DNA of 64,000 bases from a virus. The translations under genes and the position numbers were made by a program. Within the stretch, counting starts at the first letter, position 1. Each line of letters begins with the position of its first letter. Positions 2,196 to 60,572 of this stretch are shown one piece after another. The DNA lies in IMG/VR virus record IMGVR_UViG_3300049137_000145, positions 29,477 through 93,476 of that record; one strand, written 5' to 3'. Under the pieces are notes generated by a model, which was given only the letters and a program-made list of their open reading frames with translations, had not been told where the DNA came from and did not search any database.

Positions 2196-4037
2196 TCAGT
2201 GCGCGGGGGCATGCCCGTTCACCGCCCTCGGTCGCAGGGAGGTAGAGATCATGGCGGTGGTGTCGGCGTAGGGGCTGCGGCCGTCGATGATCAGCCGGCC
2301 GAAGGTGTCCAGGTGGCACAGGTACGTCCCGGACGACCCGGGCCGGGCTGACGGAGTCGCCGTGGCGACCGCATGCGTGAAGGGGCACGAATATTCGTAG
2401 TCGCCGCACAGACCCGGATGCAGCAGCTCCCACCGGCCGGCGGCGCCGACGCGGAGCATGTGCTGAGTCCGGGCTTGCTGCACGAGACGCTGCGCCCGCT
2501 CGGCCGCCGTCTGCTGCGACGGCGGGCCTGTCTCGTCCTGCGTCGGCGGTGGTTCGTCGCCCCTGGACGTCCGCGCCGGCGCGGTCTCCCCGGACGACTG
2601 CTGCTCGCTTTCAGGGGGCGGGGTGTTGCCCTGCTGCACGGCCTCGGCGGTACCGGGGTCCTGCGGTGAGACGGGCACGATCTGCGGGACGTCCTCGCCG
2701 ATGAGCTGGGCGATGGCAGACGCGGCGCCCGAGGGCAAGGTGCGGATGATGACCCTGAGTGCCTGTTCCTTGAGGTCGGCGTCCGTCGGCTTGTCGGACT
2801 CGCTGAAGCCCAGCTCCCGGCGGTACGCCGCCCCGGATATCTCCAGCCGGTCGTACGCCAGCGTCGCGTTGCCGCTGCGGTCCGGGCGCAGGGCCAGCTC
2901 GCTCATGTCGTACCAGACGACCCACGCGGCCGGGTCCTCGCCGGATGCTTCCAGACGGGGTTGGAGGTAGCCACGTGTGAGGGCGTCGCAGATCAGCTCT
3001 GCCACAGGGGCTATGTGGGTCTTCAGCGCGCCTTCCTCCAGTTGCCAGGCGCCCCAGTGGTTGACGTCGCCCATGCCCAGCAGGATCTCGGCGGGCATGT
3101 CCAGTTTGGTGGCCAGTCGCTTGATCGCACTGTCCCGCTTCTCGATGATCTTCTCGTCAATCTTCAGCGTGAAGTCGACGTGCTTGACCTTCTCGATAGC
3201 CTCGGCCGGACCGACCAGAGGAATGGGGACCACGGCGGACGCGGTGCCCGGGTTCTGGATCGCGGTCGCCGCGACCTCGATCCATTCGGACATCAGCGGG
3301 TTGGGGTCTTCGGCGAATTCTTCACGGACTGGGAACGTCAGTTCATCGGGGAGCAGGATGACACCGGCCGATGCCAGACGTGACAGGTACTCCGAGGTGA
3401 TTTTCCGGTTGACCAGCTCTAGCTCGCGCATGATCTCCCGGGCGCTGCGCGCGGGAGAGTCGGCGAGGTGGAAATACCGGTCGTGCGGGCGCCACACCCG
3501 GACGACGTGGTGGTCCGGGGCGAGGTCGCGCCAGTCCTGGCCGGTGGTGGCTGACTTCTCGTCCATCACCTGGTACTTGCCTGACTGGACGCGGATCTCG
3601 TCCACGGAGCGCACTTGCCAGCGCTCCATCTTGCCGTCCTGCTCGCCGACCAAGTAGCCCTCTCCGGGAAGGGAGAGCTGAACGGTCAGCCGGCGCATGA
3701 GCTGCGCCTGGCTGGTCACGCCCCCGCCGAACAGCATCATGAGGTCGGCGGCCGTTCCGCTGGTGACGATCTCCGGTTCGTCGGAGTCCGGCTGGAGCCG
3801 GGCCGCGCGCAGCCGGACGCGGGAGAGCATGTTGGACAGCCACCACACGCCGTAGTTGAACTCGCCCAGCGTCTCGTGGAAGCGCCAGACCTCCTCCTGC
3901 CACTTCTCCGTGCGGCGCAGGAACTTGGTCTCAGGGCCGGGTGGTTCGGCAGCGGCTGCCGTCAGGGCCTCGGGCACTGGTGCGGGCAACGGGACGGGCC
4001 TGGGCGTACGGCCCCGGAACACGTCGTACCACGGCAC
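2196..4037 (-). CDS. phage portal protein
   Basis: 613-aa ORF with a GTG start preceded by GGGAGG. Size, position upstream of the MuF/protease gene and sequence character are typical of siphophage portals. Confidence 0.8.
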   Translation of the reverse strand: MPWYDVFRGRTPRPVPLPAPVPEALTAAAAEPPGPETKFLRRTEKWQEEVWRFHETLGEFNYGVWWLSNMLSRVRLRAARLQPDSDEPEIVTSGTAADLMMLFGGGVTSQAQLMRRLTVQLSLPGEGYLVGEQDGKMERWQVRSVDEIRVQSGKYQVMDEKSATTGQDWRDLAPDHHVVRVWRPHDRYFHLADSPARSAREIMRELELVNRKITSEYLSRLASAGVILLPDELTFPVREEFAEDPNPLMSEWIEVAATAIQNPGTASAVVPIPLVGPAEAIEKVKHVDFTLKIDEKIIEKRDSAIKRLATKLDMPAEILLGMGDVNHWGAWQLEEGALKTHIAPVAELICDALTRGYLQPRLEASGEDPAAWVVWYDMSELALRPDRSGNATLAYDRLEISGAAYRRELGFSESDKPTDADLKEQALRVIIRTLPSGAASAIAQLIGEDVPQIVPVSPQDPGTAEAVQQGNTPPPESEQQSSGETAPARTSRGDEPPPTQDETGPPSQQTAAERAQRLVQQARTQHMLRVGAAGRWELLHPGLCGDYEYSCPFTHAVATATPSARPGSSGTYLCHLDTFGRLIIDGRSPYADTTAMISTSLRPRAVNGHAPAH

Positions 4038-12727: not shown

Positions 12728-14098
12728 TCACCCGATGGTGCGAGCCGCCGTGGACAGGCCCTTGGACGTGGTGATGCCGGTCATCGTGGCCTTCACGATG
12801 CGCTGGTGCCAGGCCGGCCAGACCATCGCGTCCAGCCGGTCCGGGGACCAGTCCAGCTCGTCGTACCAGGTGCACATCTGGTCCTCCAGCTCGGGGAACT
12901 CCCCCGCCATGTGCCACCGGCCCTGCTCGGACAGCGCGCTCACCGGCTCGGCGCGGACCTTCTTGCCCCGGGTGGCACGTACGGTCTTGATCGGTATGCG
13001 TACACCCATCGCGTCGGCCACCGCCCGGATCGTGTTGACTGCCATGTCCCCGCCGAAGTTGACCTCCACGCAGATGTCGTCCGCGTCGTAGTCGACGGCC
13101 GCCTGGACCGCGCGCCGGCCCCACCCGTCCGGGGAGAGGTGACAGGACCGGTCGGCGAGGACGTAGCCGTGGGCGAGTTGCGTCGGTCGCTGGTCTCCAG
13201 CGATCTCGCGGTAGTGCACCTGCATCGCCTTGCCCACCACGACGATGCCCTGCTCGCCCCGGCCGCCCGAGGGGTCCACGCCGACGGAGATCCGCGCCAG
13301 GTCCGGGAGGTCTGCTGGACGCACCCGGTGCGCGTCGATCACCGCCCGGGTCCACAGGGCGTTCTCGTCCTGGTCGATGATCTCGGCATGGAGTTCCTGG
13401 CGGCCTATCTGCGTGTTGCCGTAGGCGTCCTCCAGTGCGGCCTTGATGTCCTCGGGCAGGTGCGGGTTGTCGTACATAGACGCCCGGGTGCGCACGACGT
13501 TCTCGACTCCGCCGGACGCTAGTTTCTTGATCAGCGCCCGGGGCTTCGGGGTGGTGGAGGCCACCCAGTGCGGGCGCGGCCCCGTGCGCAGACCGAAGCG
13601 CATCTGGTCCCAGGTGTCGTCCAGGTACCTCCAGGCGGCCAGCTCCTCCAACCAGGACAGGCACCGGTTGCCTCCGGACCGCAGACGCTCGACACTCCCG
13701 GGACTGTCCGCCCCGAACAGTTTGGCCTCGGACCCGTTCGGCCAGCGGATGACCGTACCGCCCTGCACGGTCATCATCCGTGCCTCGGGGCTGTGCACCC
13801 GCAGGCCCGACGGGCCGGCGTAGCAGGATGTCGCCGCGTCGCCGAGGGTCGGTGCGATGATCCCGACCCAGTGCGGGACGGGGCCGGGCAGACACGGCGG
13901 GCCCATGACGTGTTCGTGGACGTACCGTGCGCAAGCGTCCGTCTTGCCGGCGCCACGACCGGCCAGCAGCAGCCATCCGTACCAGTCGCCGTCGGGCGGG
14001 ACCTGGTGGGGCAGCGGTGTCCAGCGCGGTTCGGACAGGGTGCGCGCGTGCATCAGCAATTTCTCGGCCGCGCTCCGGCTCAGCATCCGGTCCACCAT
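12728..14098 (-). CDS. terL: terminase large subunit
   Basis: Walker A LLLAGRGAGKTD, with a C-terminal RNaseH-like nuclease region. The start is taken at MVDRML (14098) just after terminator 14146-14181; the upstream part of the listed 519-aa ORF looks non-coding. Confidence 0.85.
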   Translation of the reverse strand: MVDRMLSRSAAEKLLMHARTLSEPRWTPLPHQVPPDGDWYGWLLLAGRGAGKTDACARYVHEHVMGPPCLPGPVPHWVGIIAPTLGDAATSCYAGPSGLRVHSPEARMMTVQGGTVIRWPNGSEAKLFGADSPGSVERLRSGGNRCLSWLEELAAWRYLDDTWDQMRFGLRTGPRPHWVASTTPKPRALIKKLASGGVENVVRTRASMYDNPHLPEDIKAALEDAYGNTQIGRQELHAEIIDQDENALWTRAVIDAHRVRPADLPDLARISVGVDPSGGRGEQGIVVVGKAMQVHYREIAGDQRPTQLAHGYVLADRSCHLSPDGWGRRAVQAAVDYDADDICVEVNFGGDMAVNTIRAVADAMGVRIPIKTVRATRGKKVRAEPVSALSEQGRWHMAGEFPELEDQMCTWYDELDWSPDRLDAMVWPAWHQRIVKATMTGITTSKGLSTAARTIG

Positions 14099-14145
14099 GA
14101 CGGCTATTGTCGGCCGTCTTGCGGCGCATGGTTTCCGGAGACGCA

Positions 14146-14181
14146 GCGAGGCCCGCCCCACGGGGGAAGGGCGGGCCTCGC
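14146..14181 (-). terminator. 13-bp GC hairpin
   Basis: GCGAGGCCCGCCC-n10-GGGCGGGCCTCGC. Confidence 0.6.
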
Positions 14182-14213
14182 TCTGCCGGTTGGAGTCAGC
14201 AGCGTGGTCCAGT

Positions 14214-15493
<1,280 letters not shown>

Positions 15494-16761: not shown

Positions 16762-17850
16762 TCACAGCTCCAGCCATATCGGGTTGGCGAGCGACCAGCG
16801 CACGGTGCGCCCGATGGACGACTCCAGCGGCATCGGCGGCTTCCACCCCAGAGCAGCGAGCCGCGAGCCGTCTAGGGCGTAGCGCAGGTCGTGCCCCGGC
16901 CGCGAGGCGTGGAAGGAGATGGGCTCGATGAGGTCGTCCACCGCGGCGGGGTCCAGTCCCATGGCCTCTCCGACCATGTGCACCAGCTCCACGTTGTCTA
17001 CCTCGCGCTCGCCGACGATGTTGTACCGCTCGGGCCTGGTGAAAGCGCCGTCCCGGTACTGCGCCGGGCCCATCGCGATGTGTATGCGCTCGCCGCTGAG
17101 GGTGGTCACCTCGGGTTCGTCCTCGGTGTACCGCCGGGTCAGCCACAGCCACGCGTCGGCGAGGTTGCGCGCGTGCAGGTAGAAGCGGGAGCCGGGGGTG
17201 CCGTCGGGCGCAACGTGCACCAGAAGGGGGCGGCCCGCGCGCAGGCACTTGATGATTTTCGGCAAGAACTTCTCGCCGTCCTGCATCTCCCCGATGATGT
17301 TCATGGTGTTGGTCAGGACGACCGGCACACCGTAGGTCCGCCAGTAACTGACCGCGATGGACTCCTGCGCCGCCTTGCTCGCGCTGTACGGGTTGGACGG
17401 CACGGCCGGCTCCCACTCCGCGTGCCGGTGCTCCCCGTAGGCCGGGCCGTAGACCTCGTCGGTGGACATCTGGAGGAACAGGCGCGGCTGGATGGCCCGG
17501 GCGACCTCCAGCACGTTCAGCATCAGCGCGACGTTGTTCTGCACAAACGGCACCGGATGGGCGATGCTGCGGTCTACGTGGCTCTCGCTGGCGACGTTCA
17601 TGATCACGTCGCAGCCGTCGAACTGGTGCAGCGTCAGTGGGTCGGCCGGCGCCCGCATGTCCCAGTGCACCACGTCCACGCGCCCTGCCCAGTCCGTGTC
17701 GGATACGGCGGATGCGATCCGGGCCGGCAGACCCTTGTGGTGGAAGCTGACCGGGCAGACGACGTCCCAGTCCGTGTTTGTCAGCAGGTGCCGCAGGACG
17801 TGGCTCCCGACGAAACCGGCCGCACCGGTGAGCAGTATGCGCATGGCCAC
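16762..17850 (-). CDS. NAD-dependent sugar-nucleotide 4,6-dehydratase/epimerase (RmlB-like SDR)
   Basis: Rossmann motif ILLTGAAGFVGSH, then STDEVYG and catalytic YSASKAA (YxxxK). Confidence 0.85.
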   Translation of the reverse strand: MAMRILLTGAAGFVGSHVLRHLLTNTDWDVVCPVSFHHKGLPARIASAVSDTDWAGRVDVVHWDMRAPADPLTLHQFDGCDVIMNVASESHVDRSIAHPVPFVQNNVALMLNVLEVARAIQPRLFLQMSTDEVYGPAYGEHRHAEWEPAVPSNPYSASKAAQESIAVSYWRTYGVPVVLTNTMNIIGEMQDGEKFLPKIIKCLRAGRPLLVHVAPDGTPGSRFYLHARNLADAWLWLTRRYTEDEPEVTTLSGERIHIAMGPAQYRDGAFTRPERYNIVGEREVDNVELVHMVGEAMGLDPAAVDDLIEPISFHASRPGHDLRYALDGSRLAALGWKPPMPLESSIGRTVRWSLANPIWLEL

Positions 17851-18359: not shown

Positions 18360-19001
18360 CTACTGACCGTCGTCCGGATCGTCCGTCTCACTGACGACTT
18401 CGCCCTCCAGCGTGCGCAGGTGCGCGCCGGCTGCCTCCAGCATCCGCTGCCGCTGCGCAGGCTCCAGCTCCACCGCGTTGGCGCCGGCCAGGATGGCCTC
18501 CACCACCACGGTCGTCTCCTCGTCCACCCGGCGGTCCAGCGCGATGGTCAGCTTCTCCGAGGCGTCCGTACCGTCGATCTTGGCCTGTCGCTCCTCGATG
18601 CGCTGGAGTCGGTCGATGCATGCGAGGACCACGCTGTCGTCGCGCAACGGGTTGCCGTCCTCGTCCTTGACGATCTGCCCTTGATAGAGGACGTAGTGCG
18701 GCCGGGCAAGCACCGCGTGGACCTGGCGGCGCATCCCGTCCAGCCGCATCCGCGCCGCCTCGCGGTACTCCTCCAGTCCCATGGCCAGTTCCTTGTTGGC
18801 TTGCTTCAGCGCGCGGGAGACGTCCACGCAGGCCGCCGCCGCCGAGGGGTTGCCCTCGGAGTCCAGGTAGTGCGGGGACATCTGCTCGGCGACCTGCTGC
18901 CAGGACAGGCCCCGGTTCTTCAGTTCGATGGCCCGCGCCCGGCGTTGCGCCACCATCGCCCGGTGGCTCGGCTGGTGGCTGGGCGGATCACCCTTCGCCA
19001 T
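18360..19001 (-). CDS. possible terminase small subunit / HTH DNA-binding protein
   Basis: N-terminal HTH-like RAIELKNRGLSWQQVAEQM followed by a coiled-coil and an acidic tail, a typical actinophage TerS layout. It lies 4 kb from terL, so the call is tentative. Confidence 0.4.
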   Translation of the reverse strand: MAKGDPPSHQPSHRAMVAQRRARAIELKNRGLSWQQVAEQMSPHYLDSEGNPSAAAACVDVSRALKQANKELAMGLEEYREAARMRLDGMRRQVHAVLARPHYVLYQGQIVKDEDGNPLRDDSVVLACIDRLQRIEERQAKIDGTDASEKLTIALDRRVDEETTVVVEAILAGANAVELEPAQRQRMLEAAGAHLRTLEGEVVSETDDPDDGQ

Positions 19002-19032: not shown

Positions 19033-19803
19033 TCACAGTCCGCAGCGCGTGGCGAACGCACCGATGACGGTCCACTGGTGCCAGCGAAACAGGATCTCCG
19101 GGTCGTGCCATCCGGCCGCCCGAATGGAGTGGATGAGCGTGTCCTGCGGATGCGGGACGAGGACGCCCCGCAGCGCCCGGGACTTGGCCCGGATACCGTC
19201 GGCAGAAATGCCGTGCTCTGCCTTCCAGTCGTGCGACGAGTCAGTGCTGATCTCATGCCACCTCGAGTCGAGCGGCCGAACCTTCTCCGCGACGATCAGT
19301 GCGCCGGTCTCCCGTGCGGACATCCGGGCCAGGTGGAGGGCAGCCACGCGGTCCCGCAACGGGAGGAACTGGAGCGTGAACAGGCACAGCGTCAGGTCCG
19401 CGTCCGTGTGCGCGAGCGGCGGGGACTGGATCGGCGCGCGTACGTAGTCGATGTGGCGGGCTGGAGCGGTGGCCAGGTTCTCGGCAGCCCTGTCCAGCAT
19501 CGGTTTCTCAACGTCGTACAGAACGGCCGAGACGTCCCGGTGGGCCTGTCGGCGCAGAATGCTACCCACCGTGGTCCCGGTGGACGCGCCGAGGTCGGCG
19601 ATCAGGCCGCCGTGCGGAACGAGCCAGTCGGACAGGCCGGCCACGAGATCCTGGATCGCGTCGTAGAACGGGACACTGGCGCGCACGTGGACGTCGAACT
19701 CGTTCACCACGTCCGGGGTGAAGGACCAGGCGCCGGCGGCGAAGGTCTCCGCAATGTCCCGGCGGGCGGGCGTCTCATCCGTAGAGGCGTCGGTATTCTG
19801 CAC
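19033..19803 (-). CDS. cmoA: CmoA-like carboxy-S-adenosylmethionine (Cx-SAM) synthase family protein
   Basis: Collinear with E. coli CmoA as recalled. [23 protein letters not shown] matches [35 protein letters not shown]...GALIVAEK matches NFTLQFLEPSER...[18 protein letters not shown]...KSRALRGVL matches HDFKRANGYS...KRSMLENVM. The GTG start overlaps the asnB-like stop. Confidence 0.8.
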   Translation of the reverse strand: [256 protein letters not shown]

Positions 19804-21181
19804 GGTAGTACCTCGCAGGGTCCGGGAGGGTCTGACTTATCAAGGTCTTCAGCCCGAGGCCATCCTGGAACGCCACCTTCGGGCGGGTGGTCACGGAGTC
19901 CGGGAGCCGGCCCCGGTACGCGCGCTGGAGTACGGCCTTCGGCCGGGCTTTGCCGTCCTGAACGGCGTGCCTGGGCAGGGACAGGGCGAGGTCCACGACG
20001 TCCGGGTCCAGGAACGGCAGCCTGCCCTCCACGCCGTGGGCCATGAACGACTTGTTCACCCGGGGGAAGTTGCGCCGGGCCTGCGCGGCGATCAGGTCCC
20101 GCCGGTAGGTGAACCAGCCCGATTTGGCCAGACCGTGGTAGGCGAACCCGTACGATGCCCACAGCTCGTCACTGCCCTCGCCGGTGTACGTGACCTTGAA
20201 GCCGTCGGAACGGATGGCCCTCGCGAGAGCGAGACACGGCCAGGAGATCTCTACCTGTGCCTTGTAGTCCATCTCGACCTGCGCGACGACGTGAGAGAGG
20301 TCGTCGGCCGTCGGCGGCGGGACGTCGACCTCCACCAACTTGACGCCGATCATCTCGGCTGTCTCCCGGGCGCAGCGCAGGTCCCGGGACCTCGGGTCCA
20401 TCCGTGCGGTGTAGCAGACCAGGTCCGGGTAGTGCTGCTTCAGCTCCAGAGCGATGGCGGCGGAGTCGATGCCGCCGGACAGCAAGGAGCACACCGGCAC
20501 ATCGGCAATGGCCCGCCGGTCCACGGCCCGCTCAAGGGCCCCAGCGAGGGCGTCGGCCGCGTTGTCCAGCGTCCAGTTCGCCGGATGCGCGGTGAGCCGG
20601 TGGAAGGTCCGCCGGGACGTCGCACCGCTGGTCGCCTCAGTTCTCCACCACTCCCCCGGACCGACGTCCAGCACAGCCGGGCCGCAGCGGCGCCCGAGCG
20701 CGGTGAACGCCTTCAGCTCCGAGGCGTACAGCACAGGCCGGGTCCGGTGGACGTGCAGCGGGATCTCCCCGTGCCGGTCCCGCGCCGCGTGCAGCACGCC
20801 CGGCTCTCGGTCGTCCGTCCACACCAGGGCGAACATGCCGTCCAGAGCGGGCAGCGTGCGGGCGGGGCCGAGGACGGCGAGCGCAGCGGCGATGACCTCC
20901 GTGTCCCCGCTGGTCTGCCAGGTCCGGCCAGGATCGGCGCGCTCTACTGTGCGCCGGACGGCCGGGGCGTTGAACAGCTCCCCGTTGTAGGTGAGCAGCA
21001 CCGGCCCGTCGCGGTACGGCTGATCCGAACGCGTGGAAGGGTCCTGAATCGCCAGCCGCGTGTGCCCGAGGGTCACCCCGCCGGACTCGGCGACGGCCGA
21101 CGCATCCGGGCCCCGGTGCGCCAGGGCAGCCACAGCCCGGCTGAGGTCCGCGCGGCCGGCGGCGGCGACCAGACCGCACAT
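19775..21181 (-). CDS. asparagine-synthetase-like glutamine amidotransferase (class II GATase + PP-loop)
   Basis: True start MCGLVAAAG (Cys2 nucleophile) and PP-loop SLLSGGIDSAA. The start overlaps the methyltransferase stop (TGATG). Confidence 0.85.
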   Translation of the reverse strand: MCGLVAAAGRADLSRAVAALAHRGPDASAVAESGGVTLGHTRLAIQDPSTRSDQPYRDGPVLLTYNGELFNAPAVRRTVERADPGRTWQTSGDTEVIAAALAVLGPARTLPALDGMFALVWTDDREPGVLHAARDRHGEIPLHVHRTRPVLYASELKAFTALGRRCGPAVLDVGPGEWWRTEATSGATSRRTFHRLTAHPANWTLDNAADALAGALERAVDRRAIADVPVCSLLSGGIDSAAIALELKQHYPDLVCYTARMDPRSRDLRCARETAEMIGVKLVEVDVPPPTADDLSHVVAQVEMDYKAQVEISWPCLALARAIRSDGFKVTYTGEGSDELWASYGFAYHGLAKSGWFTYRRDLIAAQARRNFPRVNKSFMAHGVEGRLPFLDPDVVDLALSLPRHAVQDGKARPKAVLQRAYRGRLPDSVTTRPKVAFQDGLGLKTLISQTLPDPARYYRAEYRRLYG

Positions 21182-22431
21182 CAGATCGTCCCTGCCTCGC
21201 GCAGCGGCACGAGGATCCGGTCCCGCACGGCGGTGGCGATGTGGGACATCATCACCGGCGGCACGGCCCGGCCGATGCGCTCCCAGCGCTGCGCGTACGT
21301 CCCGGTGAGCACGAAGTCGGCCGGGAACCCGCCGATGGCCCGCAGCTCTCCGAGGGTCAGCTTCCGGGCCTCTACCCCGTGACACGGCCCGGTGATCGTG
21401 ACGTCCCCTTGCGCAGCCATCACCGTGTTGTATGGCCGGTCCGGGTGCTGCCGCCTGACGTGGAAATACTTCTGCGACTTCTCTCCAGGCCGCAGCCTCG
21501 CCCACTCATCGCCGACGGCGTACCCCTTGATGGACAGGGCCTGCCCTGTCTCCGGGTCGTGGGTGGCCGGGTTCTCCGCGTCACATACGTAACCCGCTCC
21601 TTTGTTGGGCCCGCTAGCCATCAGAGTTGGCGCAGAGCCGCTTTCCGCCGGGTACATCGTTGACAGTACGTCCCGGCGGGCTGCTACGAAGTCGGCGTGA
21701 GGCGGGGCCGTACCGTACATAGCGATCCACGGCAGCGCGTCCCGCACGGTGTACCGGTACGGCAGCGGCGCTGGGTGCACCGGGTCCATGCCGAGGTTTT
21801 CTCGGACACCCACGAAAATGAGCCGTTGCCGGGCCTGCGGGACGCCCAGCCACGAAGCGTCTAGCACGCGAGCCTGCACCCTGTACCCGCACGCGCGCAG
21901 CCGGGCCAGGATCAGCTTGAAATACCCCTTGGCCGTGCCTTTGACCAGGCCGGCGACGTTCTCGGCGACGAACGTCCTGGGCTGCGTCTCCTCGATGAGC
22001 CGGGCGTACTCGTAGAACAGGTCGTCGGTGCGCTGCTGGGTGTCACTGTACTTCTTCACCTGGCCCCAGCCGGCCTCGCGTTTGCCGGCTGTAGAGAACG
22101 AGGCACATGGCGGGGAGCCGTCGAACAGGTCGATCTCCCCGGCCCCGAGGCCGCATGCGTCCAGGATGTCCTGGCCGGTGACCTCCCGGATGTCGCGGGT
22201 GTCCAGCACGGTGTACGGCGCCGCGTTGGCCCGGTACGTCTCCTGCGCAGCGGGGATGAACTCACTGGCCCACAGCACCCTGAAACCGGCCATGCGGTAG
22301 CCGAGGGAAGACCCGCCACAGCCCGAGAACGTACTGACTGCGTTGAAGCCGTTCCACGGCAGGCCCCGGATTTCTCCCATGGACGGCACGCGGTACGGCG
22401 GCTTGCCGGTCACCGGGACTTTCCTGACCAC
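21181..22431 (-). CDS. DNA (cytosine-5) methyltransferase-fold enzyme with Arg in motif X
   Basis: Motif I FSGCGG, IV GSPPCASFS, VI FVAENV, VIII QARQRLIFVG and IX GGFPADF. Motif X is GRAVPP instead of the canonical GNAVPP. Confidence 0.9.
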   Translation of the reverse strand: MVRKVPVTGKPPYRVPSMGEIRGLPWNGFNAVSTFSGCGGSSLGYRMAGFRVLWASEFIPAAQETYRANAAPYTVLDTRDIREVTGQDILDACGLGAGEIDLFDGSPPCASFSTAGKREAGWGQVKKYSDTQQRTDDLFYEYARLIEETQPRTFVAENVAGLVKGTAKGYFKLILARLRACGYRVQARVLDASWLGVPQARQRLIFVGVRENLGMDPVHPAPLPYRYTVRDALPWIAMYGTAPPHADFVAARRDVLSTMYPAESGSAPTLMASGPNKGAGYVCDAENPATHDPETGQALSIKGYAVGDEWARLRPGEKSQKYFHVRRQHPDRPYNTVMAAQGDVTITGPCHGVEARKLTLGELRAIGGFPADFVLTGTYAQRWERIGRAVPPVMMSHIATAVRDRILVPLREAGTI

Positions 22432-23021
22432 TCATACCCGCACTTGGGGCACCGGTGTTCGGTCTCGATGTCCTCGTCGTAGGTCGGGAATTCCGCCGGC
22501 GGCACCGGGGCAGGGATGGCGGTCGCATCGAATTCGGGTGCGTCCGCTTGGCTGAACAGCTCCGCATCCGAGAGCGCGTAACCGGTGCCCACGAGGTCGT
22601 CGTCTAGTGTGGCGAGCAGCGCGGCCAGGGCGTCGTCGTCATAGGAGCCGTCGTCGGCCGACTTGTTGTCCACCAGGTTGATGCGCGTGGCGGTCGCGTC
22701 GTCGCACTCGATGAGGTGGGCGAGCGCCGTCGGGTCGTCGCGGTCCACCTCGATGCAGAGCTGGCACGGCCGGTCGTTGGCCAGCTCCCAGTCCTTGCAT
22801 GCTTCGCGACCGTCTTCCTCGTGCCGCAGCAGCGCCAGATACGTGTGGTTGCCGGCGAGGATCGTCAGCGTCTCGTCGGCCCGGCGGACGGTGAGCGGCC
22901 TGTACTGCCCGTTGGCCCGTAGGCTGTCCAGAATCAGATCGACGTTGCCCCGGCGCGCGTTGCCCTCGAACGGGGTGAGATCTTCCAGTGGGACGCGTTC
23001 GGTCCCTACGGTCGTGGTCAT
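22410..23021 (-). CDS. ParB/Srx-like nuclease-domain protein with C-terminal zinc ribbon
   Basis: FEGNARRGNVDLILDSLRANGQYRPL...LAGNHTYLAL, with C-terminal CPKCGYEW. It overlaps the methyltransferase start. Confidence 0.75.
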   Translation of the reverse strand: MTTTVGTERVPLEDLTPFEGNARRGNVDLILDSLRANGQYRPLTVRRADETLTILAGNHTYLALLRHEEDGREACKDWELANDRPCQLCIEVDRDDPTALAHLIECDDATATRINLVDNKSADDGSYDDDALAALLATLDDDLVGTGYALSDAELFSQADAPEFDATAIPAPVPPAEFPTYDEDIETEHRCPKCGYEWSGKSR

Positions 23022-27467: not shown

Positions 27468-30400
27468 TCAGTCCTTCGCGTAGCAGGACGCCCAGTCCCG
27501 GGCCGCCTTGGAGGCCCCGGCGGTGATCGGCACGCCCTTGAACTCGAACGTGAACGCGTCCAGCACTGTGGCCGTGATCTCCTTCACGCGGTCCTCGGGG
27601 ACGCACAGGACGACCTCGTCGTGCACGACGCAGCGCAGCCACTCCGTGGCCTCCGGAGCCCGGTCGACCAGACGCAGGAGCGCTTCGCACATGATGTCCC
27701 GGGCGCCGCCCTGACCCATGAGCGCCGGGGCCTGCGTCCAGGCACGGTCGGGGTTGCAGCGCATGAGCCGGCCGAACCCGTTGTCCAGCAACTCGCCAGC
27801 CGCCGCCCGCTCCCGAACCTCGGTCCGCCAGGCGCACAACACCGGATACTGCGCGTTCATCTGGTCATCGAACTTCTGGGCCAGTTCCAGCGCGACACCG
27901 GAGTTGGCGATGCCCTTGACGGACATGCCGTAGTTCCATCCGTGGCCGATGCGCTTGGCGTTGTCGCGCCACTCACCGTCGTGCCGGCCGAACACGGCGT
28001 CGGCGATGCGCGAGTGCGCGTCCTCGCCGGGAGCGAAGTTGGCCATGTACGCCGGGTCCTGGCAGTGGCCGGCGATGGCGCGCATGTCGACCTGGTCCAG
28101 GTCGAAACAGATCAGCAGTGAACCGTCGTCGGCGATGAGCGGACGCCGCTGGTGCACCTTGCCGCCACGCTTGGCCATGTTGGTGACCGACGGGCGGACG
28201 TACGCCCACCGGCCAGAGCCCTGGAGATCGCCGACCTGGGGGTGGATCCGGTCGCCGATCAGGTGATCCATGATCTCCTGGTACTTCTGGACCGAGGACG
28301 TCACGGTGACGATGTGGCCCGCCATCTCCTCGATTGCGGTCCAGTCGGCGTTCGGGTGGTATGGACGCCGGTTGGGGTTCAACAAGGCCGGCACCTCGCG
28401 ACCCCCCGCCCCCTTGCCGACGAAGTACGACCCCCTGCCCAGCGCATCCTTGTTGAGGCTGATCAGGCCAGACGCCGTCTTGAGGTAATACGGCAGCCCC
28501 CGGTCGGCGAACGCCTTGATGATCGCCTCCCGGCCCTCGTTGGTGGACAGCGGCGACTTGACCGGCTCGTCAGTGAAGACGCGGTTCTTGCCCCGGCCCT
28601 TGCCGACGGAGCGGGTCAGCGGGACACCGCAGTGCTCGTGCAGCCACTCCAGCGACTCCTGCCTCTTGGCGGCCTCCGCGTCGACCAGCTCACGCAGGAC
28701 GGGGACGTCGACCTTCCAGCCGGTCAGGGTCGGCCGGTGCTGGATGTGGGCCACCCGCATCTCACGCCGGACGTAGTCCGAGGGCTCGCCCAGAGCGCGC
28801 CGCACGCCCCGGGTGGCCTGAAGATCGCCGCTGAAGTAGACGCTCAGCTCGTTGACCGGGATCCGCCCGTACCCGAGGTCGGTGCGCTCGGCCTTGTCCA
28901 GCTTGCGGCCGTCGATCTCCTCGGGCCCGTGCTTGAAGGCGAGCGCCGACAGGTCGTCGGTCTTGCCGTTGACCCCGTGACGCTGTGCGGTCTGGTCGAG
29001 GCCGTAGTAGCCCTTGGCTGCCCAGGGCTTTTCGTGGGCAGCGCCGGGCGGGTCGATGGTCTGCTCCCACCGGAGGGTGTCCATCGTCTTGGCGGCCAGC
29101 TTGTCGTAGTCGGCTCCGTGGTGGATGGCGAGGGCCATCAGGTCGAACCCGAGCAGATTGTGGCCGTACAGCTCGTCGGCGTCCTCCAGCCGCTTGATCA
29201 GCTCATCGACGGAGTTGACGACAACCTCCGTGCCGTCCTCGGTGACGTAGCCGGCCAGCCGGACGTACGGGTCGCCGCCGAGGTCTTTGTGCCGGAACAG
29301 CAGCTTGGCGCTGTGGGTCTCCAGGTCGAACCCGACCACGCCGCCGGCGCGAACCGGGGCAGCCTCCGGGGACGGTGCCTGGGCGGGGACGGAGGCCGCA
29401 CGGGGGGTGTGATCGGCTTCCGCTTCCGCGAAGGGATCGCCCCCGAACGGATCCGCGTCGAGGGCAGGCTGAGAGGGTGTACCCCCTGTACCTCCTGCTC
29501 CTGTTCCCCCTATACGGGGAGAGATTTCACGGTTATAGGTCGGAGGAGGTACAGGGGGTACACCCTCGTCTCCGCCGTCGTTGACCTCGTCTTTTCCGTT
29601 CGGGTCCTGGAAGCGCACTCCGAGCCACGCCTGGTAGTTGACGCCCGTGGGGGTGTGGCCGCCCAGTGTCGACCGTCCGTCCCGCGCCCTGATCTTCTTT
29701 CGTTCGACCCCGTTCCGGGCGCACTCGTCGTGGCCTCCGAATCGGGAGACGAAGGTGCGGTCGGTCCACTCACGGTGGCCCTTGTCCGCCAGGTACTTGT
29801 TGAAGACCTCGTGCAGCTCCCGGGCAAGGATGTGGCTGTTCCAGTCGAACGTCAGGACATCCCCGATGAACGACAAGATCAGGTCCGATTCCTTGCGCCA
29901 GCTCAAGGTGTCCTTTTCCACCTGCTTCGGCGCGGGCGGCATGATCTGCCCCGCTGCGTACCACTTGCGGGCCCCCTCCACCAGCCACGCCAGCGCAGCC
30001 TCCGTACGTGGCCCGTCGTCCGTGCGCAGGCGCTGACGGAGCATCTGGTCACCGGGTTTGTCGTAGGGCCCTGTGCATGCCTCTCCGGGCTTCCTGAACG
30101 TGAACGGGAACGTGAGCATCTGGAGCCTGCGCCACGTGCCGTGGTCCGACTCCTCCACCAGCGGCCGGTGGTTGGTGTTGATGATCAGCGTATGCGTCGC
30201 CTTGAAGGTCACGCTGTCCTGGCGCATCTTGCGCGCCGTGATCTGCTCGGTACCGGCGAGCTGCTTGACCCGGTTGACGTCGAGCTTCTTCGCTTCCGGG
30301 GTCTCCTCCAGGACGGCCAGGCGGGCACCGAGGAAGTCCATCATCTCGGTGGGGTGGTTCTCGCTCGCGTTGCCGAGCAGGGCCCGGTGAGCAACGGCCG

Positions 30401-31811
30401 TGTGGTACCCGCCGCGCGTACCGGCGGCCTTCGCCAGAGTGTCCATGATCGAGGACTTGCCGTTGGATCCGCCGCCCTGGCAGATGAGGATGACGTCGTC
30501 CGGCGGCGTGTGCCCGGTGATGGCCTGGCCGTTGCGGATCTGGAAGTAGTCCACTACGTCGTCAGGGACGGCCTCCAGAGCGGTGTCCCAGTCGGGGTGC
30601 CGGGCACCGGGGACGTAGTCGCACCCGGTGATCTTCGTCATCAGCCGGTCGGGGTCGTGGGGGGTGAGCACACCGGTGCGCAGGTCCAGGATGCCGTTCT
30701 GGCAGTTGAGGGCGTCGGGGTCGTAGTCGAAATCGGTGGCCGCCGACTCCAGGATGCCCCTGGACAGCTTCAGCAGGTTGCCCAGTTTGGATGCGGCGAG
30801 TGCCCCGCGCCAGCCGTCCATCTGGCTGCGCAGGTCTTTGTTCGGCTCAGCGCGCTGCTGGTCGAGCACGCGCTGAAAGCCCGCCATCGCCCACTGCCGG
30901 ATGTCCTCCATCACCGTGGCGTCGGTGCATTCTGTCCATACCTTGCCGTTCCACTGCATCCACCCGAGCCCGGCGGCCCAGCGGTACCGGCCGTCCAGTG
31001 TCTCGGAGCACACCGTGTCGGCGAGGATCGCGTCGGAGAACGCCGCGTCACGCGTGTTGTCGCTCGGCATCTCGGTGGTGGCCGCGCCGTGAAGGTCGGT
31101 CAGCGTGCCGCCGGCGTGGAGGAAATCGTCCACGCCCTTGGTGGGCGTTCCGTTGATCTCCTCGGGGACGATCAGGTAGTGGATGACGGCGGCCCCCTTG
31201 GACTCCAGCCACATCCCGAGCCGCCGCATGGCCATCAGGACCATCCTGTTGTGCCGCGCGTCGGAGTCGAAACAGATGACGATGGTCCGGCCCTTGAGCG
31301 GGATGTCCTCCCAGTCGCCGAGGGTGCCCAGACGCGACCGCCAGTTGAAGACGCCGGACAGGGAGACGACGGCGAGGCCCTGGGACGCCAGGGAATCCGC
31401 CTTTTTCACGCCCTCAGTGATCCACAAGGGATTCGTGACGACACGCACCGCGTTCGCCATGAGCGGCGGAACGTCCAGGCGCGGCTTGGTGCCGACGGGG
31501 GAGGCGTATTTCATCATCTTGTCGCCGCTGCCGCTGCTGTGGGGCTGCGGCTGGCCCGGCTTGAACTGCGCACCGATACGCTCACCGGTCACCCGGTACA
31601 GCGGAATGAACAGGCCCGGGAATGCCGTTTCCTCGCGCCAGGCCCACACCGGGATGGATTCCTCACGCAGCCGGGCCCGGTCTTCATCGGTGCCGTACAA
31701 CGTCTCGTACCCGCGTGCGTCGCGGTGCTCCGGGGCGATCTCGCTGGCGTCCAGCTCCGCCAGATGGTGGTCCGACACCTGCCCCGAGTTCGTGTCCACG
31801 TACGTGGTCAT
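27468..31811 (-). CDS. replication polyprotein: Toprim/DUF3854-like primase region + SF3 (P4/D5-type) helicase + family A DNA polymerase with 3'-5' exonuclease
   Basis: N-terminus has WITEGVKKADS...ICFDSDARHN (Toprim). The middle has QGGGSNGKS (Walker A) and LAVLEET (Walker B). The C-terminus has FDLETHS and HNLLGFDL (exo), CFDLDQVDMR (Pol motif A), RDNAKRIGHGWNYGM (motif B) and VHDEVV (motif C). Confidence 0.9.
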   Translation of the reverse strand: MTTYVDTNSGQVSDHHLAELDASEIAPEHRDARGYETLYGTDEDRARLREESIPVWAWREETAFPGLFIPLYRVTGERIGAQFKPGQPQPHSSGSGDKMMKYASPVGTKPRLDVPPLMANAVRVVTNPLWITEGVKKADSLASQGLAVVSLSGVFNWRSRLGTLGDWEDIPLKGRTIVICFDSDARHNRMVLMAMRRLGMWLESKGAAVIHYLIVPEEINGTPTKGVDDFLHAGGTLTDLHGAATTEMPSDNTRDAAFSDAILADTVCSETLDGRYRWAAGLGWMQWNGKVWTECTDATVMEDIRQWAMAGFQRVLDQQRAEPNKDLRSQMDGWRGALAASKLGNLLKLSRGILESAATDFDYDPDALNCQNGILDLRTGVLTPHDPDRLMTKITGCDYVPGARHPDWDTALEAVPDDVVDYFQIRNGQAITGHTPPDDVILICQGGGSNGKSSIMDTLAKAAGTRGGYHTAVAHRALLGNASENHPTEMMDFLGARLAVLEETPEAKKLDVNRVKQLAGTEQITARKMRQDSVTFKATHTLIINTNHRPLVEESDHGTWRRLQMLTFPFTFRKPGEACTGPYDKPGDQMLRQRLRTDDGPRTEAALAWLVEGARKWYAAGQIMPPAPKQVEKDTLSWRKESDLILSFIGDVLTFDWNSHILARELHEVFNKYLADKGHREWTDRTFVSRFGGHDECARNGVERKKIRARDGRSTLGGHTPTGVNYQAWLGVRFQDPNGKDEVNDGGDEGVPPVPPPTYNREISPRIGGTGAGGTGGTPSQPALDADPFGGDPFAEAEADHTPRAASVPAQAPSPEAAPVRAGGVVGFDLETHSAKLLFRHKDLGGDPYVRLAGYVTEDGTEVVVNSVDELIKRLEDADELYGHNLLGFDLMALAIHHGADYDKLAAKTMDTLRWEQTIDPPGAAHEKPWAAKGYYGLDQTAQRHGVNGKTDDLSALAFKHGPEEIDGRKLDKAERTDLGYGRIPVNELSVYFSGDLQATRGVRRALGEPSDYVRREMRVAHIQHRPTLTGWKVDVPVLRELVDAEAAKRQESLEWLHEHCGVPLTRSVGKGRGKNRVFTDEPVKSPLSTNEGREAIIKAFADRGLPYYLKTASGLISLNKDALGRGSYFVGKGAGGREVPALLNPNRRPYHPNADWTAIEEMAGHIVTVTSSVQKYQEIMDHLIGDRIHPQVGDLQGSGRWAYVRPSVTNMAKRGGKVHQRRPLIADDGSLLICFDLDQVDMRAIAGHCQDPAYMANFAPGEDAHSRIADAVFGRHDGEWRDNAKRIGHGWNYGMSVKGIANSGVALELAQKFDDQMNAQYPVLCAWRTEVRERAAAGELLDNGFGRLMRCNPDRAWTQAPALMGQGGARDIMCEALLRLVDRAPEATEWLRCVVHDEVVLCVPEDRVKEITATVLDAFTFEFKGVPITAGASKAARDWASCYAKD

Positions 31812-33121: not shown

Positions 33122-33360
33122 GTGCTGAGGACTACAACCACGGACTCCGGGCCAGGGCACTGGCCGTGTCCGAGACGGAACTGCGCCGCGCGGTAGACCG
33201 GCTGCTGGAGCGGTGTGGCCGGGAAGAGGTCCATCAGGTGCCCGGGTCGCCCCGGTCGGGGATGCTCCACGCTTCCGAGATCTACACGCTGCTGGGTCTG
33301 CGCGGCGGCCCGGACTACAGCGCACTGCGTGAGGCGCTGGACGAAGGGGGCGACCGGTGA
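33118..33360 (+). CDS. hypothetical protein (80 aa)
   Basis: Listed ORF with 4-nt overlaps on both sides. Confidence 0.55.
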   Translation: MSAEDYNHGLRARALAVSETELRRAVDRLLERCGREEVHQVPGSPRSGMLHASEIYTLLGLRGGPDYSALREALDEGGDR

Positions 33361-34997
33361 GCCAGACCCTCAAGCTCCGGGAGTACCAGCGCGAGGCCAT
33401 CGACGCTGTCCAGGCGGCCTGGGCCGATGGGATGCAGCGGCCCGCCGTGGTGCTCCCGACCGGTGCCGGCAAGACGGTGATCTTCTCCCGCATGGCGGCC
33501 GAGCACATCGCAGCCGAGGGAACGCGCGTCGTCATTCTCGTGCACCGTGACGAGCTGGCCGACCAGACGCTGAGCAAGTTGCAGCAGACCGAACCGAACC
33601 TGTTCACGGGCAAGGTGAAGGCAGCCTCCGACAACATCGCGGCCGACGTCATGGTCTGCTCGGTACAGACCCTTGCCCGGGAGACCAGGTTCAACCGGTT
33701 GCTCGACTCGCAGGAGAAGTGCGGCAAAGTCGGCCTGGTCATCGTGGACGAGTGCCACCATGCGGCAGCCGTCAGCTACCGCAACATCCTGGCTGGGCTC
33801 GGCTGTTACAGCGGAATGCCGGGCACCCGGGCCGTCGGTTTCACGGCCACGATGGCCAGGGGCGACGGCCAGGGCCTCGGCAGCGTGTGGGAGGACGCGG
33901 TCTACACCCGCTCCCCGCTGTGGATGATGTCCCGGGGCCACCTGGTCGACGTCCGGTCCAAGCTGATCGACGTGGACACCCTGCATCTCGGGGACGTCAA
34001 GCGGTCCAAGGGCGATTACACCGCGTCCTCCCTGGGCGACGCGCTGATGGCGGCCGGCGGCCCGCAGATCATCGCCAAAGTGCTGGAGGAACACGCGGCC
34101 GACCGGCGCAGCCCCATTGTCTTCACCCCGACGGTGGAGGTCGCGCGGGCAACGGCGGAGGCCCTGCCGGACGCGGCGTACGTACACGGAGGCACGCCCC
34201 GCGAGGAGCGGCTGAACATCTACCGCAAGTTCCGCACCGGCGAGGTGCGCACGCTGGTGAACTGCATGGTGCTGACCGAGGGGGCCGACTTCCCCTTCGC
34301 GGACTGCGCGGTCATCGCCCGGCCGACGAAGTCCGAGCCGCTGTTCATCCAGATGGTCGGCCGAGTACTGCGGCCCTCTCCCGCCACCGGCAAGACGGAC
34401 GCCCTGGTGCTCATCCTCGCCGGCGAGGGCGGTTCGCTGTGCACGCTGGTGGACCTGGAGCCCGGGGCAGACATCCGGGAGGTGAAGGACGGCGAGTCGC
34501 TGGCCGAGGCTTACGAGCGGGAGGAGTCCTACAAGGAAGCCACGGTCCCGGCCGGGTCGCTGCGATTCGAGCTGAAACACCGTGACCTGGATCTTTTCAA
34601 GGCGTCGACCGCCTATTCGTGGCTGCGCACCTACGGCGGCGTGCAGTTCATCCCGCTTGGCGACGACGGCGAGATCCTTCTCTGGCCGAACAGGGACGAG
34701 GAGGAAAAATGGGACGTGGCCTACGCTCCGCCGCGCGGGAACTGGGAGCGGCTGCACGAGGGGATGGACCTGGGTATCGCCATGGCGTGGGCGGAGACGG
34801 AAGCCATGGACCGGTCGTCGCTGAACATGACCAAGTCGGCGAGCTGGAGGAAGAAGCCGGCCTCCCCGAAGATGCTCGGTCTGCTCCGGTACGCCGGGCA
34901 CACCGTGCCGGACGAGCTGCGCGCGGGCCTCGCCTCGGATCTCCTCGCGGTGACTATCGCTTCGCGCAAGCTGGACCGTTTCCTTCCCCGCTCGTAG
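33357..34997 (+). CDS. SF2 DEAD/DEAH-box DNA helicase
   Basis: Motif I LPTGAGKT, II VDECHH, III FTAT and VI QMVGRVLR. Confidence 0.9.
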   Translation: MSQTLKLREYQREAIDAVQAAWADGMQRPAVVLPTGAGKTVIFSRMAAEHIAAEGTRVVILVHRDELADQTLSKLQQTEPNLFTGKVKAASDNIAADVMVCSVQTLARETRFNRLLDSQEKCGKVGLVIVDECHHAAAVSYRNILAGLGCYSGMPGTRAVGFTATMARGDGQGLGSVWEDAVYTRSPLWMMSRGHLVDVRSKLIDVDTLHLGDVKRSKGDYTASSLGDALMAAGGPQIIAKVLEEHAADRRSPIVFTPTVEVARATAEALPDAAYVHGGTPREERLNIYRKFRTGEVRTLVNCMVLTEGADFPFADCAVIARPTKSEPLFIQMVGRVLRPSPATGKTDALVLILAGEGGSLCTLVDLEPGADIREVKDGESLAEAYEREESYKEATVPAGSLRFELKHRDLDLFKASTAYSWLRTYGGVQFIPLGDDGEILLWPNRDEEEKWDVAYAPPRGNWERLHEGMDLGIAMAWAETEAMDRSSLNMTKSASWRKKPASPKMLGLLRYAGHTVPDELRAGLASDLLAVTIASRKLDRFLPRS

Positions 34998-60260: not shown

Positions 60261-60572
60261 ATGACTGTCGACACCCTGTCGCGCCGAGCCCTGCTGGAGA
60301 TGAAGCAGGGCAGCGACTTCGCGCCCCGGGTCAAGGTCTGGCCGCCCGAGGGCTACGTTGCTCCGACATCCGAAGAGTTCGCCGCGCTGCGGCAGGCGGC
60401 CCGGCGATACTCCCGGGCGACCTTCCGGGACGCTACCTGGAAGCACGTGGACGACGACCAGGTGCTGCGCCGGTCGGTCGAACAATCCGGTGGACTCCGC
60501 CTGGTTCTGCGCGCGGTGCTGGAGCGGCGACGACGAGCTGGAGGACGAGGTCGGGGCGGAGGACGAAGGTGA
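60261..60572 (+). CDS. hypothetical protein (103 aa); 3' end frame doubtful
   Basis: Listed ORF. From about 60485 the codon bias favours the +1 frame (see findings). Confidence 0.5.
   Translation: MTVDTLSRRALLEMKQGSDFAPRVKVWPPEGYVAPTSEEFAALRQAARRYSRATFRDATWKHVDDDQVLRRSVEQSGGLRLVLRAVLERRRRAGGRGRGGGRR

Follow-up and report, generated by a model that had tools for sequence, protein, structure and literature searches.

Yang et al. (Nat Commun, 7 December 2025; PMC12783734) described a pathway of DNA hypermodification in Synechococcus phage S-B43, in which CmoA makes carboxy-S-adenosylmethionine (Cx-SAM) from S-adenosylmethionine (SAM) and prephenate, and a homologue of the C5-methyltransferases, SpCmoX, accepts only Cx-SAM and produces 5-carboxymethylcytosine (5cxmC) in GC contexts. 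The crystal structure 8YF3, solved at 1.9 Å, has Arg350 where motif X of M.HhaI has Asn, and this Arg touches the carboxylate of the cofactor, mirroring the N374K substitution of M.MpeI (PMC12783734). SpCmoY, an AsnB-related PP-loop ligase without a glutaminase domain, joins glycine to the carboxylate on DNA, and S-B43 phage DNA carries the glycine amide (PMC12783734). A survey by the same authors gave 5,615 candidate CmoX proteins having SPPC and the Arg350 residue, often accompanied by CmoA, a ligase and a ParBc protein; their second-largest ligase cluster bears a glutaminase domain, is represented by A0A7T0Q3R0 and was predicted to use glutamine-derived ammonia (PMC12783734). Here we analyze a cassette of four overlapping minus-strand genes in a 64,000-nucleotide stretch of viral DNA (IMG/VR record IMGVR_UViG_3300049137_000145, positions 29,477 to 93,476; hereafter the window). 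In order of transcription, it encodes a ParB-like protein, a C5-methyltransferase homologue (here CmoX), an AsnB-like ligase and a CmoA homologue.

Judging from its genes, this cassette probably hypermodifies phage DNA after replication by the CmoA/CmoX/ligase route already in print, with 5-carbamoylmethylcytosine as the product. It shares with S-B43 a phage-borne CmoA, a C5-methyltransferase homologue combining SPPC with a motif X Arg, a PP-loop ligase of the AsnB superfamily, tight coupling of the genes and a post-replicative logic. The two differ in gene order, which is A-Y-X in S-B43 and ParB-X-Y-A in the window, and no ParB-like gene lies near the S-B43 cassette. They differ also in the ligase, SpCmoY being a glycine-using protein of 271 amino acids with no glutaminase domain, whereas the window ligase has 468 amino acids and an intact glutaminase domain; the two align at 26% identity over about 157 residues around the PP-loop (E 2e-7). 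The initial annotation of this DNA had proposed a Cx-SAM route to 5-carboxymethylcytosine, matching steps that were shown experimentally for the S-B43 homologues (PMC12783734), and amidation of that product, which Yang et al. likewise predict for the A0A7T0Q3R0 cluster. The proposal is supported but is not novel: the type of system, its diagnostic Arg, the link to ParB and this ligase subclass all appeared in print in December 2025.

All four open reading frames are present on the minus strand where the initial annotation had placed them, and the overlaps by which it had considered them coupled were found again, with TGATG at 21181 joining CmoX to the ligase and a 29-nt overlap (19775/19803) joining the ligase to CmoA. 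The third-codon-position GC content of the four genes is 0.86–0.89, typical of real genes in this genome of ~69% G+C, and a purine-rich stretch precedes each start. CmoX more probably starts at GTG 22413 than at 22431, because the former gives a GTGA 4-nt overlap with the ParB-like stop and has a Shine-Dalgarno-like AGGAAAG six bases upstream. Gene calling done independently on a Logan contig of identical sequence picked this start too, and the annotation of Streptomyces phage TurkishDelight likewise has a 4-nt overlap at this junction. The gene arrangement is far beyond chance, its order being repeated in TurkishDelight and in dozens of IMG/VR contigs. A scan of 16.5–25.5 kb for promoters and terminators returned nothing above chance.

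CmoX matches PF00145 (E 9e-53) and, in line with the canonical C5-methyltransferase motifs claimed in the initial annotation, has motifs I (FSGCGG), IV (SPPC, with Cys109 in GSPPCASFS), VI (ENV), VIII (QARQR) and X (IGRAVPP, with Arg388). Its best sequence match in the PDB is SpCmoX 8YF3 (E 7e-58), followed by M.HaeIII (E 5e-24), and it aligns with SpCmoX over the full length at 33% identity (E 6e-68). S95-P96-P97-C98 of SpCmoX falls on the window SPPC, and every cofactor-contact residue described for SpCmoX is conserved in the pairwise alignment (residue list from PMC12783734). Thus Phe25, Glu47, Phe48, Asp69, Cys98 and Arg350 of SpCmoX correspond to Phe35, Glu57, Phe58, Asp80, Cys109 and Arg388 of the window protein, and the last pair was obtained in both phmmer and BLASTP alignments. 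The region between motifs VIII and IX aligns neither with SpCmoX nor with any solved methyltransferase, so the target sequence cannot be inferred and the GC specificity of SpCmoX is not transferable to the window enzyme.

The initial annotation had named M.MpeI N374K as a precedent for Cx-SAM use, and a statement in PMC12783734 bears this out: there too a basic residue in place of the motif X Asn enables use of Cx-SAM and formation of 5cxmC. M.MpeI N374K is an engineered Lys point mutant that is CpG-specific and uses E. coli CmoA, whereas the window enzyme comes from an Arg-type lineage that occurs in nature and is served by a CmoA encoded beside it. The suggestion that a natural Arg would fit a dedicated DNA carboxymethyltransferase agrees with SpCmoX being the best PDB match and with the contact of its Arg350 to the Cx-SAM carboxylate (PMC12783734).

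An IMG/VR scan with the window CmoX yielded 80 related viral loci (52–74% identity), which we examined by tblastn and motif inspection. SPPC is present in 80/80 and the motif X Arg in 79/80, the remaining one having failed the search pattern, and a ParB-like gene lies directly upstream of CmoX in 75/80. The initial annotation had suggested looking in other phages for its trio of methyltransferase, ligase and CmoA, and the trio does recur: a CmoA homologue lies downstream of CmoX in 79/80 loci (the exception ends 184 bp past CmoX), and the slot between the two holds a glutaminase-type ligase in 34 of the 80, a SpCmoY-type ligase in nine and nothing in 37. The window ligase therefore occupies the position that the validated type of 5cxmC ligase takes in sister cassettes.

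As controls for motif X, 944 phage records matching the window methyltransferase were sampled at even steps down the ranking and their C-termini read. Asn was found in 6/6 control enzymes, from Streptococcus, Arthrobacter, Mycobacterium, Klebsiella, Paenibacillus and E. coli phages, and none of these six genera is among those named for the 82 phage records in which CmoA was matched (two further genera are not listed). The Arg-type enzymes of isolated phages adjoin CmoA in 4/4 cases, namely TurkishDelight, S-B43, Pseudomonas PaBG and Moraxella Mcat8. The motif X Arg is thus not common in ordinary 5-methylcytosine methylases; the initial annotation had said that a common Arg would undo its proposal.

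Other CmoX-related genes were encountered along the way. Flavobacterium phage Fpv5 (L084 1426-2493) and Methylophilales phage Melnitz (L085 1396-2613) have CmoX-like methyltransferases with SPPC that are 33–38% identical to SpCmoX, and at the Asn/Arg position of motif X they show a third state, Met (IGMSVPP) or Leu (IGLMVAP). Neither has a CmoA in its 1.5-kb flanks, and neither genus is among those named for CmoA matches (two further genera are not listed). In Erwinia/Dickeya jumbo phages (e.g., MZ443772.1 33000-35069), CmoX matches in three pieces over ~2.07 kb, covering 75% of the query. These homologues are annotated as hypothetical, and the genes for CmoA and for a short ‘asparagine synthetase’ are some 20 kb distant, near 12–13 kb; the CmoX gene may carry insertions, or it may be split. 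The window itself has a second, divergent C5-methyltransferase-like open reading frame on the plus strand (60569-62119; 516 aa, PHROG 116). PF00145 covers only its N-terminal part (E 2e-8), and it has a 145-aa N-terminal extension; APCPAFS replaces SPPC, VEQS replaces ENV and the motif X-like QQAADVVCP has Asp where the canonical residue is Asn and that of CmoX is Arg.

The CmoA gene lies 1.4 kb downstream of CmoX in the same operon. Its product matches TIGR00740 (CmoA) end to end (positions 11-235 of 239, E 6e-28), PDB entries 4GEK (E. coli CmoA, E 4e-18) and 4IWN, and PHROG 4752 (E 9e-54). It is 27% identical to E. coli CmoA (EcCmoA) and 26% to the validated SpCmoA, which is itself 27.9% identical to EcCmoA. 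The FTLQF segment is the same in all three proteins, and in E. coli CmoA the backbone of its Phe133 contacts the S-carboxymethyl methylene (PMC4482062). A survey of orthologues of CmoB, the co-conserved partner of CmoA, lists them for proteobacteria and a few other phyla, with no Actinobacteria (PMC4482062), which would account for the presence of a CmoA gene in the phage itself.

The ligase contains GATase_6 (E 9e-28), GATase_7 and Asn_synthase (E 7e-45) domains together with an SGGIDS PP-loop, and its description in the initial annotation as an AsnB-type enzyme with a Cys2 glutamine amidotransferase site is upheld by both domains and catalytic residues. It aligns with E. coli AsnB (1CT9; E 8e-39) over window residues 19-446, the alignment stopping at AsnB residue 460, and shares with it the two-domain architecture, the N-terminal Cys, the glutaminase residues, SGGxDS and the equivalents of Glu348, Asp351, Glu352 and Lys449. 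Glutaminase-type homologues have 451–470 aa, the window ligase included, ~90–100 aa fewer than the 553 of AsnB; the window ligase itself falls short by ~85 aa at its C-terminus. By its sequence, this is an enzyme expected to work like AsnB but lying below the NCBIfam cutoffs of that family (TIGR01536, 253.5 vs. 267.1 bits; NF006949, 232.7 vs. 499 bits). We compared 35 glutaminase-type ligases that are 35–91% identical to the window protein, and in 35/35 Cys2 and the equivalents of AsnB Arg49, Asn74-Gly75-Glu76, Asp98, Glu348, Asp351, Glu352 and Lys449 are invariant. The Ser, Gly, Gly, Asp and Ser of the PP-loop are likewise invariant, and its fourth position varies (Leu in 27, Ile in six, Val in two). 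This invariance is strong evidence for two working active sites in the ligase.

This ligase lies between CmoX and CmoA in the window and in 34/34 viral loci carrying it. A scan of bacterial genome contigs with the ligase gave one true relative, in Streptomyces sp. NRRL S-455, and that one carries the whole cassette. The other 28 matches, ordinary AsnB paralogues that served as negative controls (23–34% identity, a range only a little under that of distant phage ligases), have neither CmoX nor CmoA within 6 kb. Window-type ligases differ from AsnB in being found only in CmoX/CmoA cassettes, where cellular AsnB-like genes are not, and in their presumed acyl substrate, which would be a base in DNA in place of aspartate.

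Among isolated phages TurkishDelight comes closest: its gp122-gp125 (NC_073473) repeat the cassette gene for gene, in unchanged order, and share the 29-nt ligase/CmoA overlap. Identities to the window are 50% for the ParB-like protein, 64% for CmoX (gp123), 75% for the ligase and 64% for CmoA (gp125), and a second ParB-like gene, gp121, lies upstream. The ligase gp124 is 74.7% identical over 97% of the query and is, by exact-sequence look-up, UniRef100_A0A7T0Q3R0. This makes the window ligase an orthologue, at 75% identity, of the representative of the glutaminase-bearing cluster, which was delimited in PMC12783734 by a sequence similarity network with a threshold of about 30% identity. The TurkishDelight genome, at about 93.5 kb, is similar in size to that of the window phage (~93 kb, Streptomyces-type), but the two are different phages, as there is no megablast nucleotide similarity in the cassette region. 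Megablast of the 4-kb cassette region against 50,697 phage records gave no match at all, relatives being detectable at the protein level only. Our literature search, covering mostly sources other than subscription journals, found no paper mentioning TurkishDelight.

The exact-sequence look-up assigns the window ligase to a 93,476-bp IMG contig, and near-identical ligases to contigs of 95.7 kb and 102 kb in the assemblies of Streptomyces sp. NRRL S-455 and S. massasporeus (L004 and L095). That the relatives take up whole contigs, close in size to the 93.6-kb TurkishDelight genome, points to an extrachromosomal prophage, a carrier state or a co-sequenced phage rather than an integrated prophage.

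The product of the first cassette gene, with a putative N-terminal domain of the ParB/Srx fold, matches PHROG 723 (E 1e-37) and PHROG 620 (E 4e-25) and, weakly, Spo0J (1VZ0, E 0.77); domain search detected no helix-turn-helix parS-binding domain family in it. It ends in a zinc-knuckle-like tail, CPKCGYEWSG (22413-22442, minus strand), that stops where CmoX starts. Across 70 homologues linked to CmoX (L004–L083), the best-conserved part is this tail (E.I.T...CPxCxYxWSG, with a single CxxC) and not the ParB domain, and the tail might be a CmoX-interaction or zinc-binding element. Phage ParB-fold proteins without a DNA-binding domain activate thymine dioxygenases specifically on double-stranded DNA (PNAS 2026, PMC13229309). 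That 5mYOX/ParB system resembles the window in having a small phage ParB-fold protein beside a post-replicative base-modifying enzyme, one that needs its partner on double-stranded DNA; it differs in that the enzyme is an Fe/2-oxoglutarate dioxygenase rather than a protein of the C5-methyltransferase fold, and no CPxCxYxWSG tail is described there. By this analogy, the ParB-like protein is most likely a partner or activator of CmoX.

We propose the following pathway. CmoA would convert host SAM and prephenate into carboxy-SAM, as its S-B43 homologue does. CmoX would flip the target cytosine out of phage double-stranded DNA, Cys109 would attack C6, and the carboxymethyl group of Cx-SAM would pass to C5 to give 5-carboxymethylcytosine, with Arg388 of motif X holding the cofactor carboxylate; the conserved residues point to this chemistry, which was shown for SpCmoX. 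At its PP-loop the ligase would then use ATP to adenylate the carboxylate thus installed, and the Cys2 site would hydrolyze glutamine and channel ammonia to the acyl-adenylate, yielding 5-carbamoylmethylcytosine. We infer this ligase step from domain logic and context; the one enzyme for which amide ligation on 5cxmC in DNA has been demonstrated is SpCmoY, which lacks a glutaminase domain and uses glycine (PMC12783734). The ParB-like protein, translationally coupled to CmoX, might help it engage double-stranded DNA or activate it. The modified bases presumably shield phage DNA from host nucleases. For 5-carbamoylmethyl-deoxycytidine the predicted [M+H]+ is 285.119, and the same calculation reproduces the values of 286.1 (acid) and 343.1 (glycine amide) given by Yang et al. 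A literature search that covered synonyms, mostly outside subscription journals, found no report of 5-carbamoylmethylcytosine in DNA.

Several points weigh against this proposal. The 80 related loci were picked for their resemblance to the window CmoX and lack phylogenetic independence, and the enzyme of the A0A7T0Q3R0 cluster was insoluble in the hands of Yang et al. (PMC12783734). The CmoA homologue scores under the curated cutoffs (TIGR00740, 98 vs. 193 bits; NF011995, 65 vs. 285 bits), so that of the collinearity with CmoA claimed in the initial annotation the end-to-end alignment stands while the score falls short. The one side chain that reaches the Cx-SAM carboxylate in E. coli CmoA is that of Arg199, through a bidentate contact (PMC4482062), and the equivalent of Arg199 in the window protein is Ser in an alignment anchored by the invariant Lys198, Leu202 and Pro208. 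The same position is Glu in the biochemically active SpCmoA (Glu199/Arg203), and among 83 phage CmoAs (L001–L083) it is Glu in 54 and Arg in 20. Arg is found elsewhere in these proteins, at 200/203 in the window, 203 in SpCmoA and 207 in the majority, and in phage CmoAs the basic residue has apparently shifted its place on the helix. Arg199 was rejected as a diagnostic of CmoA, being kept neither in validated SpCmoA nor in most of the 83.

Further such points concern the ParB-like protein and the ligase. The ParB-like protein has no Pfam PF02195 match even at E ≤ 1 and does not keep the canonical GERRxRA CTP motif, the GERRYRA of Spo0J aligning with GNHTYLA in the E 0.77 match; with no Pfam ParB domain and a marginal Spo0J match, the ParB-like assignment rests on the PHROG profiles. 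SpCmoX, moreover, is active without any ParB (PMC12783734). The ligase retains the acidic cluster Glu335, Asp338 and Glu339, which in asparagine synthetases binds the alpha-amino group of aspartate (PMC6748925). Loss of the aspartate pocket had been considered as an argument against AsnB function and was dropped, and the conserved cluster leaves free aspartate possible as a substrate of the ligase. We speculate that 5-carboxymethylcytosine, with its carboxymethyl group on the carbon beside the exocyclic amine, mimics the aspartate side chain.

Three other explanations can be set beside this pathway. The least probable is that CmoX is an ordinary 5-methylcytosine methyltransferase with unrelated neighbors, the CmoA-like protein being a generic SAM methyltransferase or a tRNA-modification enzyme. 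The low score of CmoA, its missing Arg199 equivalent and the public annotations of such genes, which read simply ‘methyltransferase’, would suit such a view, but motif X has Arg instead of Asn, SpCmoX with such an Arg accepts only Cx-SAM, the linkage of Arg-type enzymes to CmoA is near universal (79/80 loci and 4/4 isolated phages), and there is no CmoB-like gene or tRNA target gene among the window genes. It is improbable, though less so, that the pathway ends at 5-carboxymethylcytosine and that the AsnB-like gene encodes a true asparagine synthetase, an auxiliary metabolic gene raising asparagine supply that happens to sit in the operon. Such an enzyme would hardly be expected exactly between CmoX and CmoA, in the SpCmoY-type slot, in 34/34 cases, nor would translational coupling on both sides, a deficit of about 90–100 aa relative to AsnB, a score of 233 bits against the 499-bit cutoff of the AsnB equivalog model and the 0/28 cellular AsnB-like loci neighboring CmoX or CmoA fit it well. 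These observations outweigh, in our view, the retention of all AsnB catalytic residues with the aspartate-binding acidic cluster, a TIGR01536 score just under its cutoff, and the 37/80 related cassettes that do without any ligase.

An unlikely reading, yet the strongest of the three, keeps the steps to 5-carboxymethylcytosine and has the ligase make something other than the simple amide, whether by amidation of Cx-SAM before transfer, by use of hydroxylamine from glutamate gamma-hydroxamate or with another amine. The full class II glutaminase catalytic set, invariant in 35 homologues, fits ordinary glutamine hydrolysis better, and no gene for an unusual nitrogen donor lies within the cassette; yet the PDB matches of the glutaminase domain include a hydroxyamidotransferase (7YLZ, E 3e-19), the simple-amide product of this ligase cluster is a prediction only, and several ligase clusters have distinct pockets with amines unassigned (PMC12783734). 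Prior amidation of the cofactor is opposed by the carboxylate-binding Arg that CmoX keeps, which implies transfer of the free-carboxylate form, and by SpCmoY, which acts on 5cxmC in DNA and not on the cofactor (PMC12783734). We thus continue to favor 5-carbamoylmethylcytosine as the probable product.

The cassette lies inside a block of minus-strand genes that extends from ~2 kb to ~32 kb of the window. Table 1 gives its features together with other window genes, among which there is also an exonuclease gene.

Table 1. Coordinates of the cassette, its key codons and other genes of the window
Feature	Position	Strand	Remarks
Portal protein	2196-4037		
Large terminase	12728-14287	-	
CmoA homologue (putative carboxy-SAM synthase)	19033..19803	-	256 aa
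Putative glutamine-dependent AsnB-like amide ligase (‘CmoY’, glutaminase-bearing)	19775..21181	-	468 aa, starts MCG
Ligase PP-loop SGGIDS (ATP pyrophosphatase motif)	20462..20479	-	
Ligase Cys2 codon, N-terminal glutaminase nucleophile	21176..21178	-	
CmoX-type DNA cytosine C5-carboxymethyltransferase homologue	21181..22413	-	410 aa; 416 aa if GTG 22431
Motif X Arg388 codon CGG (IGRAVPP)	21268..21270	-	Asn in canonical C5-methyltransferases; Arg350 in SpCmoX
Catalytic Cys109 codon, SPPC (motif IV)	22105..22107	-	Aligns with SpCmoX Cys98
ParB-like protein, first cassette gene	22410..23021	-	203 aa; PHROG 723 and PHROG 620
Primase/polymerase	27468-31811		
Helicase	33357-34997		

Downstream of the cassette by 1.2 kb lies a gene for a dTDP-glucose 4,6-dehydratase-like short-chain dehydrogenase/reductase (16762-17850, minus strand; TIGR01181 E 4e-59 but under cutoff; PHROG 540, ‘nucleotide-sugar epimerase’). 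It was considered as an extension of the pathway and dropped, being common only to the closest relative, L004, and not to other cmo cassettes. TurkishDelight, Gordonia Evaa, Moraxella Mcat8 and the window phage, though unrelated, all have cmoA directly upstream of the terminase/packaging module or at the physical genome end (window 18360-19001 to 12728, minus strand; L001 right end; L002 3236-5649; L091 5100-7567), and the cassette may be expressed with late or packaging genes. The large terminase of the window also differs from its counterpart in L004, the Streptomyces sp. NRRL S-455 contig (15925-17349), where ~610 bp of extra sequence appears to interrupt the gene and the match is split into window residues 41-211 and 207-307 flanking the gap. 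An intein, an intron or a homing element could account for the interruption.

The locus bears on the one step that the discoverers of the pathway could not test, their representative glutaminase-bearing ligase being insoluble. The window ligase and its 34 orthologues, spanning 35–91% identity with invariant catalytic residues, form a panel of alternative enzymes for asking whether natural DNA contains 5-carbamoylmethylcytosine, and culturable Streptomyces phages such as TurkishDelight belong to the lineage, so that virion DNA is accessible. The near-universal ParB-like partner of the window CmoX lineage poses a second question, having no counterpart in the characterized S-B43 system. We give an even chance to the joint proposition that the virion DNA of the window phage and of at least 34 related cassettes contains 5-carbamoylmethylcytosine and that the ParB-like protein is an obligatory activator of CmoX on double-stranded DNA. 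If this is true, the ligase would be an AsnB-fold enzyme using a flipped-out DNA base as its ‘aspartate’, and CmoX of this lineage would represent a ParB-dependent subclass of DNA carboxymethyltransferases.

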